From: Escherichia coli
GTDB taxonomy: Bacteria; Pseudomonadota; Gammaproteobacteria; Enterobacterales; Enterobacteriaceae
Assembly: GCF_003790525.1 (NCBI RefSeq)
Contig: NZ_CP033635.1
Length of the DNA: 64,000 bases
Strand: one strand, 5' to 3'
Shown in pieces: positions 33,463 to 45,876 of this stretch. Below the pieces are notes generated by a model that did no database searches, had not been told where the DNA came from, and worked only from the letters and a program-made list of their open reading frames with translations. Made by a program: the position numbers and the translations under genes. Positions within the stretch are counted from its first letter, which is position 1; each line of letters begins with the position of its first letter.

Positions 33463-33798
33463 TTATATAATCGCCATCACTTTCCAGGCTAGCCCATAGG
33501 CCAGCGCACTAAGCAGTGTTGGGATGATAATGCTGCGTGTTTTATAGAAACTGGCACCCAGTACCGCGAAGCCGACCAGCGTGGGCACGAAACGGCGTGT
33601 ATCGTGCATCACTTCTGGTGCGGTAGAGACAACCAGCAGAGCGCATATCGAGGCGATGCCAATGGTGTCGAGCAAAATGCCTATCGCGCCACGTTTGGTT
33701 GGGCGGGCATTACCCACACGCAGGCGCAGCGGCAGATAGCGGAAGCAATAATTCGCCGCGCCAACCAGTAACCCAAGCAGCAGAACCTCATAGCTCAT
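33463..33798 (-). CDS. ygaH: Branched-chain amino acid exporter small subunit YgaH (AzlD-like)
   Basis: 111-aa hydrophobic ORF overlapping ygaZ. Confidence 0.85.
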
Positions 33799-34525
33799 CG
33801 GGCGCTCCTTGCCAGAATGCCTGGATTAACGCAGTGAGGCAGCCACAGACAATGCCTGCCAGAATGGCGACGGGAATAGAAAATAGCGTTACGCCTGCAA
33901 GGGCACCAACTAACGCTGCGGTAACGCAAAGAGATTGTTTGCGCTGGAAAGAGGCGAGCAGGAAACTCATAAAGAGTGCCGGAAGCATAAAACCTAATGC
34001 TGCTTCAACGGCGGGATATCCTTGCAGCAAGCCGCTGCCGGAGAATGCCCCTATTACCGTACCAAATACCCACGATGACCATGAACTGAAGGCAATGCCG
34101 ATCATCCAGTTTTCGCTCCAGCGGCGATTATTGCGTACCAGTTTTGCGGTTGCGGCGGCAAAAACCTCATCCGTCAGGCCAAACGCCCACAGGGCGGTTT
34201 TCGATTTTTGCAGACGCTGAATAATACGGCTACGCAGTGACGGGCCATACAAAACATGGCGAACATCCATTGCCATGACGGTCAGTGCAGCAACCCACAA
34301 ACTACTCCCGGCTGCCAGCATCGCGGTAATGACGAACTGGCTCGCGCCTGCATAAATGATGCAGGAGAAAAAAACGCTTTCGAGAGGAGAGAATCCCAGA
34401 CGGGTCGCATTCAGACCGAACGCAAAGGCCACCGGAATATAACTAATAACAATCGGTAAACTGTCTTTGCATCCTTCCATGAAGGTCGCCGAACCAGGAG
34501 CAGGCTGTGGAGTAGGGCTTTCCAT
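33788..34525 (-). CDS. ygaZ: Branched-chain amino acid exporter large subunit YgaZ (AzlC-like)
   Basis: 245-aa membrane ORF preceding ygaH. Confidence 0.85.
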
Positions 34526-34648
34526 AGAGTGTACGCTTAACGATTGTTAATATTATAAATAGACTGAATGAATATCTTAACCTTATCAGACTGATGGGCT
34601 TCTTAACACCCTTATAAGTGTAAAGCCACGAAAACGGTTGCTGATTGC

Positions 34649-35833
34649 TTAATTTGCGGCTTCCTGACGATGAAAACCTCGCCACCAGACCAGTAAGTTA
34701 ACCAGGGCAATCGTCGCGCCAGCCAGACAAACGCCAGCCCAACCGCCATGTTGCCAGGCTGAGGCTGAAATTAGCGAACCGGCGGCACCGCCAATAAAGT
34801 AGCTGGTCATGTAACCTGCGGTCAGGCGATTACGCGCATCAGGGTGTATTCGATAAATTACCGTCTGGTTAGTGATATGCACGCCCTGCACGGTGAGGTC
34901 CAGCACCAGGATGCCGATAACCAGCGCCAGTACAGAAGTGTGTCCAAACCAGATAGCCAGCCATGAAAGTAACAGCAGCAGCAGGCCGAAAGTTGTGGTG
35001 AGGTGTGATTTGCCCTTATCGGCAAAACCGCCCGCCGGACGAGCGCCTAACGCCCCGGCAGCTCCTGCAAGTCCGAACAGACCAATTACGCCATCGCTGT
35101 AGTTAAAAGGTGGAGCGGCAAGCAAAAAGGCCATTGAGGTCCAGAGAATGCTGAAGTTGGCAAAGGTCAGGCAGCCCAGCAACGCGCGGGTGCGCAGGAT
35201 TTTATCGCTGATAAACATGCTGAAAACAGAACCTAGCAACTGTGGGTAGTTGAGGTGGGTTTCTGATTTCATTTGTGGCAGACCACGCCATAACGCCAGC
35301 GCCATCAGTGCCATTAATACCGAAGCGACCCAAAAGACAGTTCGCCAGCCACCGAGACTCGCCAGCAATCCGGCAACGGTCCGTGCCAGCAAGATCCCCA
35401 ACAGCAGCCCGCTCATAATGGTGCCGACCACTTTGCCGCGTTTGTCCGGTGAAGCCAGCGTCGCTGCCAGCGGAACCAGAATTTGTGCCACGACTGAGAA
35501 TAAACCGGTTAATGCCGTACCGAGGATCATCATCGCCAGCGACTGACTGCTGGCGGTAATCAACATACCGCCCGCTGCCAGTAAGGTCATCGAGACAATC
35601 AGGCGGCGGCGTTCAAACATATCACCGAGGGGAACAAGAAACAGCAGACCTGCGGCATAGCCCAACTGCGCGGCGGTAACAATAAAGCCCGCCGAACTGG
35701 CGGAAAGGGAAAAGTTACGCGCGATGGTGTCGAGTAATGGCTGGGCGTAATAGTTACTGGCTACCGCCAGACCGGTGGCGATAGACATCAGCACGATCAG
35801 TGCCGGGCTAAGCTCATGATTAGGTTTAGTCAT
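34649..35833 (-). CDS. ygaY: MFS transporter YgaY (intact here; recalled as a pseudogene in K-12)
   Basis: 394-aa uninterrupted 12-TM-like ORF at the ygaY position between ygaZ and proX. Confidence 0.75.
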   Translation of the reverse strand: MTKPNHELSPALIVLMSIATGLAVASNYYAQPLLDTIARNFSLSASSAGFIVTAAQLGYAAGLLFLVPLGDMFERRRLIVSMTLLAAGGMLITASSQSLAMMILGTALTGLFSVVAQILVPLAATLASPDKRGKVVGTIMSGLLLGILLARTVAGLLASLGGWRTVFWVASVLMALMALALWRGLPQMKSETHLNYPQLLGSVFSMFISDKILRTRALLGCLTFANFSILWTSMAFLLAAPPFNYSDGVIGLFGLAGAAGALGARPAGGFADKGKSHLTTTFGLLLLLLSWLAIWFGHTSVLALVIGILVLDLTVQGVHITNQTVIYRIHPDARNRLTAGYMTSYFIGGAAGSLISASAWQHGGWAGVCLAGATIALVNLLVWWRGFHRQEAAN

Positions 35834-35934
35834 TATTTTTGTTCATCAGGTGATGATTAAGCTGGAAATCAATAATAGCGGATGTTGATGAATATGGGAT
35901 GAAAGATAGATTGTTGAAATGTGCGGTGTGGTTT

Positions 35935-36014
35935 GTAGGTATGATAAGACGCACCAGCGTCGCATCAGGCATTGTGTACAGAGCGGCGGATGAGGCAAAA
36001 ACGCCTTATCCGCC
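35935..36014. repeat. REP/BIME element
   Basis: gtaggtatgataagacgcaccagcgtcgcatcaggc...ggcggatgaggcaaaaacgccttatccgccc. Confidence 0.7.
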
Positions 36015-36024
36015 CGAATAAAAA

Positions 36025-37017
36025 TTACTTCTGCGCTGCCAGCGCTTCATTCACCCAGCCATCGAACTGCTGCTGGTGGGCTTTGATCCAACCATCAACG
36101 TGGCCCTGAATATCGCCTTCTGAGGCTTTGCCGTCATGCATAATGGCGTTCTGGGCGTTAATATCTGCCACTGGTAACTGCATAATGGCAAACAGTTTCG
36201 CTGCTGCCGGGTTTTTCTCAGCCCAGGCTTTGTTGGCAACGATATGCATGGTACTGACCGGGAAGCCGTAATTCGCGCCATTCGGCAGTTTGGTATCGGC
36301 ATTTTTATCGCCCGGCAGTGCGGAGAACGGCACCTGCAACCAGACCACATCTTTCCCCGGTTTCAGTTCGTTACTCACCCAGTACGGCGTCCAGGTGTAG
36401 TAAAACACCGGCTTACCCTCTTTGTAACGACTGATGGTGTCAGCCATCATCGCTGCGTAGTTCCCCTGATTATGCGTCACGGTATTGGTCAGTCCATACG
36501 CGGCAAGCTGGTGGTTGATCGCACCTTCGCAGCCCCAGCCTGGGTTACAGCCGGTTAAATCCGCTTTACCGTCGCCGTTGGTATCGAACAGTTTGGCGAT
36601 CTTCGGATCTTTAAGTTGCGCGATGTTGGTAATTTTATACTGGTCGGCGGTTTTCTTATCGATCAGGTAACCCTGTGCCGCGCCGTTAACAAATACTCCT
36701 TCACGATAAAATTTCTTATCGCCACCGGCAGCTTCATACATGTTGTCATGCAGCGGCGTCCAGTTCACGGCGGTGAAGGTTGCATCGCCGGAAGCAAGTG
36801 AGGTGTAGCCAACGTTGTAATCCACTTCGCTGGGTTTATTGACGGTATAACCTAATTTCTCCAGTGCACGACTGACCAGCAGCGTCTGGAAGGTTTCTTC
36901 AGTGATGGTACTCTGAACTGGATTAACAGTAATGCCTTTGCCCGGCAGATCGGCAGCAAAAGTTTGTGTAGAGATAAGCGTGGCAAACGCTGTCGCAAAA
37001 AGTACGCTATGTCGCAT
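36025..37017 (-). CDS. proX: Glycine betaine/proline ABC transporter periplasmic binding protein ProX
   Basis: 330 aa from the ATG at 37017 ([28 protein letters not shown], signal peptide); the track ORF has a 14-codon upstream extension. Confidence 0.9.
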
Positions 37018-43428: not shown

Positions 43429-43636
43429 GATTCGTATTTCCGTTTAAAATGAAGATACGGCGCGATGATACGCGTCGGGTTGTCTCTCTGTTGATACAGA
43501 GATACTAGATGTAGTTGAAAAAAGATTCAACCACACAAGATATGGGAATTTTAGATTGATTACGCCACCGATGAATGGCTCAACGGGGTAGGGGATTTTG
43601 TGTTTTTTTGCCGGGCGAATACCCGGCATCAAGAAG

Positions 43637-44068
43637 TTACATCCGCATGGAAACGGCCAGACGGTTAAAACAATTCATCAGCCCGATGGCAAACGTTAAG
43701 TCGCTGATCTCTGCTGCGCTGAAATGCTCAAGCAAAGGCTGATAAACCTCGTCTTCCGCATGGGTTCTGGCAATTTCGGTTACCGATTCCGCCCATGCCA
43801 GCGCCGCCCGCTCGCGTTCATCAAAATGATGGCTTACGCGCCAACCTGCCAGGGCGTCCAGTTTGTGCTGTGGCACGCCGGATTTGCGCAATGCTTTGCT
43901 GTGCATCTCCAGACAAAATGCGCAGCCGTTGATTTGCGAGACGCGCAAATAAACTAACTCCATCAACGTGGTATCCAGTGTGCTATTTTCCAGTGCCGTT
44001 TTGGCCTGCACTAGTGCGTTATACACTGCCGGGCTAAGTTCGTAGTAAGGCTGACGTAATGTAGTCAT
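43637..44068 (-). CDS. Carboxymuconolactone decarboxylase (CMD)/AhpD-like peroxidase-related protein; no K-12 counterpart at this locus
   Basis: 143-aa ORF with strong AGGAG Shine-Dalgarno; contains GCAFCLEMH (CxxC...H, AhpD-core-like); divergent from the MocR-type regulator. Confidence 0.8.
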   Translation of the reverse strand: MTTLRQPYYELSPAVYNALVQAKTALENSTLDTTLMELVYLRVSQINGCAFCLEMHSKALRKSGVPQHKLDALAGWRVSHHFDERERAALAWAESVTEIARTHAEDEVYQPLLEHFSAAEISDLTFAIGLMNCFNRLAVSMRM

Positions 44069-44099
44069 ACAGTTTCTCCTCTTATTAACGCCCGCAATG

Positions 44100-44120
44100 T
44101 AGCACTATAATGGACTGCTA
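44100..44120. promoter_or_regulatory. Inverted repeat TAGCA-N11-TGCTA enclosing a perfect TATAAT; candidate operator/promoter
   Basis: Located in the 87-bp divergent region between the CMD gene and the MocR gene. Confidence 0.3.
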
Positions 44121-44155
44121 AAGAGAGCCATAAATTACCTAAAAAAGCAGACCAT

Positions 44156-45490
44156 ATGCCGCGCTATCAGGATATCGCCCGTCAGTTAAAAACGGCTATT
44201 GAGCAAGGGGAACTGAAACCCGGCGCAAGGCTGCCTTCAAGTCGTACCTGGTCGCAGGAGCTGGGGGTGTCTCGATCCACTGTCGAAAATGCGTATGCTG
44301 AGCTGGTGGCGCAAGGATGGCTGATCAGGCGGGGACAGGCTGGCACATTTGTCAGTGAGCGGATATATCCGCAACAATCTACTGTACAAGTTGTAGCTTT
44401 TGCCGGTGAAAGTCAGCAACCGTTGCCATTTCAAATGGGATTACCCGCACTCGATCTCTTTCCGCGAGAGCTGTGGGCGCGGGTGATGGGGCGTCGCCTT
44501 CGTACCCAGACGCGCTTTGATTTGGCGTTAGGCGATGTCTGCGGTGAGGCGGCGTTGCGCGAGGCAATAGTTGATTACTTACGCGTTTCACGTGGGATTG
44601 ATTGTCAGCCAGAGCAGGTCTTTATCACTCACGGTTATGCGGCCTCAATAGCTTTAATTCTGCACGCGCTGGCGAAACCGGGAAACGGGATGTGGATAGA
44701 AGATCCCGGCTTTCCACTGATTCGCCCGATTGTCACTCGCCATGATGTGGAAATTTTGCCTGTGCCGGTTGATGACAATGGACTGGATATCACAAGCGGA
44801 ATACAAAATTATCCTGATGCGCGTTTTGCCCTGATAACACCAGCACACCAAAGTCCGCTGGGTGTGGCGCTCTCTTTAGCGCGCAGGCATCAGATACTGG
44901 AATGGGCAGATCGTAGTCAGGCATGGATTATTGAAGATGATTATGACAGTGAGTTTCGCTATCACGGTAAGCCGTTACCGGCGTTGAAAAGTCTCGACGC
45001 ACCGCAGCGGGTAATTTATGCCGGAACATTCAGCAAAGCGCTATTTCCTGCATTGCGCTGTGCGTGGCTGGTGGTGCCGGTGAAGCAAATTGCACAATTC
45101 CGCCACCAGGCGTCACTGGCTCCATGTGCGGTACCTGTTCTATGGCAGAACACACTGGCAGACTTTCTTCGCGAGGGGCATTTCTGGCGGCATCTGAAGA
45201 AAATGCGTCAGCATTATGCTCAACGTCGGCAATGGATTGAGCAAGCGTTGACGCAGCAAGGATTTCAGGTTGTGCCGCAGAAAGGTGGTATCCAGATGGT
45301 GATCAGAATGATAGGCGATGATATTGCCCATGCGCGTAAAGCCAATGCTGCAGGCCTTGCGGTGCAGGCACTTAGCGACTGGCGTATCCGTTCAAGTGGG
45401 GAAGGTGGATTACTGCTTTCGTTTACTAATATCGTTAACGAAGGTATGGCGCGACAGGTAGCACAACAATTACGTAAAGCCTTAAGCTAA
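44156..45490 (+). CDS. MocR/GabR-family regulator (GntR-type HTH fused to a PLP aminotransferase-like domain)
   Basis: 444-aa ORF; N-terminus LPSSRTWSQELGVSRSTVENAYAELVAQGWL is a GntR-type HTH; the remainder is aminotransferase fold-type-I-like. Flagged as absent from K-12 at this position. Confidence 0.8.
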   Translation: MPRYQDIARQLKTAIEQGELKPGARLPSSRTWSQELGVSRSTVENAYAELVAQGWLIRRGQAGTFVSERIYPQQSTVQVVAFAGESQQPLPFQMGLPALDLFPRELWARVMGRRLRTQTRFDLALGDVCGEAALREAIVDYLRVSRGIDCQPEQVFITHGYAASIALILHALAKPGNGMWIEDPGFPLIRPIVTRHDVEILPVPVDDNGLDITSGIQNYPDARFALITPAHQSPLGVALSLARRHQILEWADRSQAWIIEDDYDSEFRYHGKPLPALKSLDAPQRVIYAGTFSKALFPALRCAWLVVPVKQIAQFRHQASLAPCAVPVLWQNTLADFLREGHFWRHLKKMRQHYAQRRQWIEQALTQQGFQVVPQKGGIQMVIRMIGDDIAHARKANAAGLAVQALSDWRIRSSGEGGLLLSFTNIVNEGMARQVAQQLRKALS

Positions 45491-45519
45491 AAAACCCCGA
45501 AGCCAGGCTTCGGGGTCAA
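45491..45519 (-). terminator. Intrinsic terminator of ygaM (abuts the MocR-gene stop)
   Basis: ccccgaag-ccagg-cttcgggg stem followed on the minus strand by TTTTT. Confidence 0.6.
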
Positions 45520-45546
45520 AGACGCGTATTTATTATCATTTTTGCA

Positions 45547-45876
45547 TTACGATTTGCGCATGCTTAACAGTGCGCCGATAAAAATACCCACCGCTGCCGC
45601 TGTACCCACACTACACCAGGGTCTTTCACGAACAAAAGAATCCGCGCAGCCAACGGCATCGCGCGCGGCTTGCTGGACGCGAGTACGACCATGCATCCGC
45701 GCCCTGGTTTCTTTCAGTAGAGCCTGCGCTTTACTACGAGCGGCTTCGGCTTCCCCTTTGGCGTCGCTGCACCAGGACTTCAATACAGATTCGAGACTGT
45801 CAGCTAATTGATTGACATCATTCTGGATATCTTGCACGCCATCATCAACGTCGTTGCGGTTCGGTCGGTTAAACAT
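45547..45876 (-). CDS. ygaM: Ribosome-associated DUF883/ElaB-family membrane-anchored protein YgaM
   Basis: 109 aa from the internal ATG, which has a GGGGGA Shine-Dalgarno (the track ORF is 113 aa); C-terminal TM segment. Confidence 0.8.
   Translation of the reverse strand: MFNRPNRNDVDDGVQDIQNDVNQLADSLESVLKSWCSDAKGEAEAARSKAQALLKETRARMHGRTRVQQAARDAVGCADSFVRERPWCSVGTAAAVGIFIGALLSMRKS

Follow-up and report, generated by a model that had tools for sequence, protein, structure and literature searches.

The ygaY gene of E. coli K-12 has long been established as a pseudogene, and its locus serves as a neutral control deletion and integration site. The "crypticity" of K-12 ygaY was also remarked in chromatin work on proVWX, and it was reported that the ygaY DNA of this strain anchors an H-NS bridge to the downstream regulatory element of proU. 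The K-12 transcript is detectable, and its modest to moderate rise after osmotic shock was attributed to proU read-through. Literature searches on YgaY yielded only these pseudogene, neutral-site and H-NS-loop mentions, and none of the papers found gave it a substrate or phenotype. The E. coli protein was listed in TCDB as 2.A.1.36.3, within the YnfM family (PMC5417439), and YnfM of E. coli itself was reported as a CCCP-sensitive, proton-dependent glutarate exporter (PMC12622518) and also as improving anthocyanin export. Since CuiT, a YnfM orthologue of Salmonella and Pseudomonas, was claimed to take up Cu (PMC13101709), the direction of transport is not readable from membership of this family.

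The window considered here is the whole stretch of 64,000 nucleotides of E. coli DNA that was analyzed. It carried ygaY as an ATG-initiated open reading frame of 394 codons located exactly at 34649..35833 on the minus strand, both in the list of open reading frames and in the raw sequence, so that the uninterrupted 394-aa frame announced in the earlier note stands. The DNA of this gene was 100% identical to a coding sequence of strain SC516 annotated as "MFS transporter" (WP_000165717.1), and the encoded protein scored 145.5 bits with the Pfam family MFS_1 (PF07690) over residues 17-311, well above the cut-off of 33.4 (E = 2.5e-42), and matched Sugar_tr and MFS_4 less strongly. A hydropathy scan with a 19-residue window revealed 10 strong hydrophobic stretches, and an AlphaFold2 model built from 75 diverse homologues (pLDDT 95.2, pTM 0.93) was all-helical with a complete set of transmembrane helices, resolving two Gly/Ala-rich helices that hydropathy had under-scored. 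The model presented the twelve-helix arrangement of MFS transporters, in which two six-helix bundles are joined by a cytoplasmic loop, its central loop falling near residues 185-195, and superposed on 12-TM MFS structures with TM-scores of 0.8-0.9. The 12-TM-like pattern that had been noticed from the letters was thus borne out by the Pfam match and the full helix set of the model, hydropathy by itself giving ten strong segments. Taken together with the comparisons presented below, the window ygaY is read, with a probability of about 0.85, as an ordinary, functional wild-type allele of a stand-alone 12-helix MFS transporter gene of the YnfM family, which E. coli and its relatives keep by purifying selection; its product would most likely be a proton-coupled exporter.

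In K-12 MG1655 (NC_000913.3), ygaY (b2681) is annotated as a pseudogene of 1178 bp, and the same region of another K-12 genome bears the PGAP label "frameshifted". When the window gene was aligned with that of K-12, 45 positions were substituted and one gap of 7 bp appeared, at gene positions 255-261 (window 35573-35579); past this gap the K-12 frame is shifted at codon 86-88 and terminates at codon 89. The earlier note had described the K-12 copy as disrupted and had named an intact and identical K-12 gene as the observation that would speak against it; the alignment that it proposed showed the K-12 copy to be neither intact nor identical, and the annotated 1178-bp pseudogene, with 7 bp missing and a stop at codon 89, agrees with that description. 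At the site homologous to this lesion (35564..35579 on the minus strand, gene positions 255-270), the window presented neither a tandem repeat nor a deletion in the alignments; it reads GCA GCG GGC GGT ATG, coding for Ala-Ala-Gly-Gly-Met. Accordingly, the window gene is not a K-12-type pseudogene allele, defined by a single GCGGCAT unit and a frameshift, but has the full 1185 bp in frame.

The origin of the K-12 lesion was clarified by the intact gene of strain D9, which is identical to that of K-12 except for two repeat units in place of one (1178/1185). D9-type alleles read CTG GCG GCA TGC GGC ATG at this site, holding a perfect 7-bp tandem repeat (GCGGCAT GCGGCAT) over codons 86-90, and the perfect double repeat with ygaY in frame was found in 789 genomes, of varied host and environmental origin, among the 5426 complete ones of E. 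coli. Since K-12 has one GCGGCAT unit where otherwise identical intact alleles have two, its lesion is the loss of one of two tandem 7-bp units, as slippage would give. The repeat allele is itself the derived state. At gene positions 256-270 of D9 it encodes Cys88, a residue that is Gly in the window and in Citrobacter, and the window sequence and that of Citrobacter (GCC GCA GGC GGC ATG) show that it arose when one G-to-T change (Gly88Cys) perfected a repeat that already matched at 6 of 7 positions. A different history was favoured at first, given the three clustered sites at which the window and the repeat allele disagree: 7 bp would have been deleted and 7 bp then duplicated so as to restore the frame, the repeat allele being the scar of these events and K-12 the surviving intermediate. 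It was rejected, as a class with three mismatches also carries the repeat, the repeat alleles are themselves diverse, and a single G-to-T change suffices to reach them from the Citrobacter sequence.

Moreover, the distribution of ygaY placed K-12 and not the window as the exception. The gene was present in 5418 of the 5426 complete E. coli genomes, in each case as one copy on the chromosome, and the match covered at least 80% of the gene in 5413 of these 5418. In each of three spread samples of E. coli genomes, every full-length non-K-12 row measured exactly 1185 bp; intactness across genomes was judged from the matched length and from a probe for the K-12 junction. An exact match to this probe was found in 353 genomes, and 60 of the 60 among the matches listed were K-12 laboratory strains. 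Since the carriers include the early K-12 branches C600, J53, DH1, RR1, NCM3722 and HMS174, the lesion dates back to the K-12 stock. Protein searches recovered the 394-aa YgaY at 97-99% identity across E. coli, Shigella, E. fergusonii, E. albertii and E. marmotae, as well as a 394-aa Citrobacter protein at 93% identity, and the homologues were always named plainly "MFS transporter". Outside K-12, an intact ygaY is the wild type of essentially every E. coli, and likewise of Shigella, the other Escherichia species and Citrobacter; it is not special to the strain of the window, whose nucleotide variant is one of the less common (26 genomes at 99% identity or above). The contrast between an intact copy here and a broken one in K-12 is therefore the known and normal state of an annotated gene. 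The idea that the window gene was unusually divergent or horizontally replaced was also discarded, because the whole 64-kb window lies at about 1-4.5% from K-12 gene by gene, and the 96.2% of ygaY fits a range that includes nrdF (95.8%), glaH (95.9%) and norR (95.4%). In the same searches, a 596-aa protein predicted on a 5.4-kb metagenome contig of the ENA (P0001) outscored the YgaY orthologues with 1098 bits at 73% identity, which probably reflects either a tandem duplication of part of ygaY or an artefact of assembly or gene calling.

The window gene differed from that of K-12 by 42 synonymous and 3 non-synonymous changes, giving a dS of 0.15 and a dN/dS of 0.023 that was indistinguishable from those of proV, proW, proX, emrA and emrB. 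Against Citrobacter, at a dS of about 1, the dN/dS was 0.045. Therefore, ygaY is under strong purifying selection.

With regard to its family, YgaY was aligned with E. coli YnfM over its full length (BLASTP, 26% identity over 409 columns, E = 2e-20), and this similarity, together with the published listing, makes it a member of the YnfM family (TCDB 2.A.1.36). At 26% identity, the substrate of YnfM cannot be transferred to YgaY. The YgaY-like subfamily comprised 1145 clusters (50% identity) at E <= 1e-30. None of the NCBIfam equivalogs reached its cut-off with YgaY, and the full-length matches below threshold were all to efflux proteins, namely SotB-type sugar efflux, Cmx/CmrA, Bcr/CflA, MxcK and EmrD, with scores against cut-offs of 63/401 for SotB-type PRK03545, 50/303 for Bcr/CflA, 37/479 for EmrD and 51/400 for Cmx/CmrA. 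Similarly, a Foldseek comparison of the model with the PDB placed SotB, MdfA and NorA at the top (TM-score 0.80-0.90, rmsd 2.3-4.3 A), and the family profile matched SotB over its full length (E = 2e-15), followed by EmrD and YajR.

The conserved residues were also those of an MFS transporter. Motif A (GxxxD[RK]xGR[RK]) was recognized in the TM2-TM3 loop at residues 68-77, as PLGDMFERRR, with P68 conserved in 75 of 75 homologues, G70 in 70, D71 in 74, R75 in 61 and R76 in 57, the inner Gly of the motif being Glu74 in YgaY. An echo of this motif was present in the TM8-TM9 loop as G268-x3-D272-[RK], with G268 in all 75 and D272 in 70 of the 75, and TM1 presented a signature, Y28-Y-x-Q31-P32-L, conserved across the 75 homologues. 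In TM5, the canonical motif C of DHA antiporters is GxxxGPxxGG. TM5 of YgaY did not match it and reads S-G142-LLL-G146-ILLA-R151 instead, so that G142 and G146 were kept (74/75 each), the Pro and the Gly-Gly were absent, and Arg151 stood in their place in 74 of the 75 sequences. Since motif C is absent, YgaY was not filed as a member of DHA1 (TCDB 2.A.1.2), only as working like one. TM10 presented a polar face formed by D312 (66/75), Q316 (64/75), H319 (45/75), N322 (67/75) and Q323 (67/75).

The genetic context was that anticipated by the earlier note, which had placed proU and ygaZH beside ygaY: all on the same strand, proVWX lies upstream and ygaZ-ygaH-mprA(emrR)-emrAB downstream. The upstream neighbour is proX, the last gene of proVWX (36025..37017, minus strand), identified by annotation and by BLAST at 96.7% identity to K-12 proX, and the downstream neighbour is ygaZ, which codes for an L-valine exporter subunit (33788..34525, minus strand; annotation and 99.3% identity to K-12 ygaZ by BLAST). 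Just past the proX stop codon, a REP-type palindromic element was found at 35938..36015 on the minus strand (Rfam RF02564, naRNA4/CssrE; score 60 bits, gathering score 59.5, E = 3e-9; the plus strand also matched, less well), which marks the end of the proU operon. The search for a structured RNA or riboswitch upstream of ygaY was abandoned, as Rfam gave this element only. The presumed promoter and 5′ UTR of ygaY correspond to an AT-rich region of 104 bp with 35% GC (35834..35937, minus strand), in which a promoter scan found no match to the σ70 consensus and no clear Shine-Dalgarno sequence was seen; about the last 110 nt upstream of the gene were identical in the window and K-12, although dS within the gene is 0.15. 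An out-of-frame mini-ORF of six codons (ATG AAC AAA AAT AAT GAC TAA; 35834-35850, minus strand) starts 13 nt before the ygaY ATG and overlaps it, and is probably fortuitous.

On the other side of the gene, the spacer between ygaY and ygaZ holds a σ70 promoter of ygaZH, TTAAGA-17-TATAAT (34552..34580, minus strand), which agreed with the consensus at 10 of 12 positions in the scan, and the same hexamers were listed as a constitutive RpoD promoter between these genes (PMC3946193). Since ygaZH has its own constitutive promoter, it is independent of ygaY transcription, and a ygaY-ygaZH operon was left unsupported given this consensus-like promoter in the spacer. The order nrdEF-proVWX-ygaY-ygaZH-emrR-emrAB was fully conserved in Citrobacter, whereas homologues at 41-57% identity had other surroundings, and none of their neighbours was of the ProU or AzlCD type. 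An attempt to read the function from the neighbourhood of six homologue loci (41-93% identity) was likewise given up, as no conserved partners appeared outside the Escherichia/Citrobacter backbone. The adjacency to proU and ygaZH is backbone synteny that is absent around the homologues at 41-57% and, therefore, gives no independent hint of the substrate.

These observations bear on two other views of the gene. One holds that the intact frame is effectively silent, its DNA acting mainly as the H-NS-bound anchor of the repressive loop of proVWX and the protein being of little consequence. The upstream region with 35% GC and neither a consensus promoter nor a Shine-Dalgarno sequence would suit such a role, as would the frameshift tolerated by K-12, but a constraint at the DNA level would not selectively spare non-synonymous sites, and dN/dS stayed at 0.02-0.045 up to a dS of about 1. 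The residue-specific conservation across the family also speaks for selection at the protein level, the allele with the repeat is in frame in 789 wild genomes, and transcripts are detectable even in K-12, all of which makes silence highly improbable. The other view ties YgaY functionally to its neighbours, either to osmoprotectants with ProU or to branched-chain amino-acid export with YgaZH. It draws on the adjacency and common orientation of these genes, on their order being kept in Citrobacter and on the moderate rise of the K-12 transcript after osmotic shock, itself attributed to proU read-through. Nevertheless, the REP element separates proX from ygaY and ygaZH is served by its own constitutive promoter, the homologues at 41-57% identity reside in unrelated contexts, and the synteny of Escherichia and Citrobacter spans the whole nrdEF-emrAB backbone without being specific to ygaY, so that a shared function with either neighbour is quite unlikely.

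The reading of ygaY as a functional transporter gene leaves the direction of transport to be weighed. YgaY would act as an alternating-access secondary transporter, presumably one that exports a small metabolite or a xenobiotic by coupling to protons. Two nearly invariant residues embedded in the membrane, Arg151 in TM5 and Asp312 in TM10, are candidates for proton coupling, and Gln316, His319, Asn322 and Gln323 on the polar face of TM10 could form with them a site for proton and substrate. Analysis of the matches tilts somewhat towards export. Import of a nutrient or a metal by proton symport or facilitated transport is possible but doubtful: the N-terminal half of YgaY (TM1-6 only) resembles symporters, such as the aromatic acid/H+ symporter subfamily (E = 1e-21) and GlcP (4e-8), the canonical antiporter motif C is absent, and import of Cu was reported for CuiT, the counterpart of YnfM in Salmonella and Pseudomonas (PMC13101709), whereas the full-length matches in sequence and fold were all to exporters (SotB, MdfA, NorA, EmrD, Bcr, Cmx), the YnfM proteins of E. 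coli and Corynebacterium act as exporters, and the ygaY homologues had no linked catabolic genes in any context examined. A more speculative proposal, and an unlikely one, is that YgaY is a conserved orphan exporter, or possibly importer, whose specific substrate has been missed because K-12 lacks the protein, and that the osmotic-shock rise ascribed to read-through is meaningful. If this were true, restoring the 7 bp in K-12, or using the window allele, would permit the de-orphanising of YgaY.

Since K-12 lives without ygaY, the gene is dispensable in the laboratory. Resources built on K-12, such as the Keio collection, transporter screens and orphan-transporter metabolomics, are blind to YgaY, since K-12 is exceptional in this respect. 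Any non-K-12 allele, that of the window included, could serve to de-orphanise this conserved and strongly selected MFS transporter, and putting back exactly the missing 7 bp would return its native protein to the K-12 lineage. The value added here to an already known contrast is modest and consists of the definition of the K-12 lesion as the loss of one 7-bp repeat unit, and of the recognition of ygaY as a gene that is strongly selected yet functionally orphan.

Other features were observed elsewhere in the window. The ygaQ gene (57372-59624, minus strand) is an uninterrupted open reading frame of 750 aa with weak matches to alpha-amylase domains, and K-12 ygaQ (b4462) is annotated as a pseudogene of the same length with in-frame TAG codons at positions 111, 346 and 614, each of which is TGG (Trp) in the window. 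It is thus a second gene intact here and a pseudogene in K-12, all three lesions being TGG-to-TAG changes. Between nrdH and ygaM (43429-45547), the window has about 1.9 kb that K-12 lacks, including an open reading frame of 143 aa of the carboxymuconolactone-decarboxylase family (AhpD-like; 43637-44068, minus strand) and a divergent 444-aa regulator of the GntR/aminotransferase fold (MocR-type; 44156-45490, plus strand). The region beyond ygaQ (59625-64000), of low GC (38%), corresponds to the K-12 region holding ileY, ypjB and ypjC, and carries a DUF5508 open reading frame of 285 aa (ypjB-like) at 61594-62451 on the plus strand.

In comparison with the systems described to date, one of the nearest is K-12 ygaY (b2681; UniProt P76628; once split as ygaX/ygaY), the orthologous locus between proX and ygaZ, which shares 96.2% nucleotide identity with the window gene outside the indel and differs by 3 amino acids in conceptual translation. 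The K-12 gene is one 7-bp unit short and frameshifted, whereas the window copy is in frame and reads GCAGCGGGCGGT at the site, without the repeat. No difference of substance separates the window protein from about 5000 near-identical proteins of E. coli, Shigella, Escherichia and Citrobacter. The solved DHA1 drug/sugar:H+ antiporters SotB (YdeA), MdfA and NorA share with YgaY the 12-TM topology and size at 15-18% sequence identity, and YgaY differs from them in lacking the canonical motif C and the acidic residues of MdfA TM1. YnfM of E. coli (TCDB 2.A.1.36.1) has as its neighbour the divergent ynfL, by annotation a putative transcriptional regulator, whereas no regulator gene lies next to ygaY; nevertheless, YnfM belongs to the same family as YgaY, can be aligned with it over the full length, has 12 TM helices and presents, like YgaY, a TM5 signature ending in Arg (SGxxxGxxxxR).
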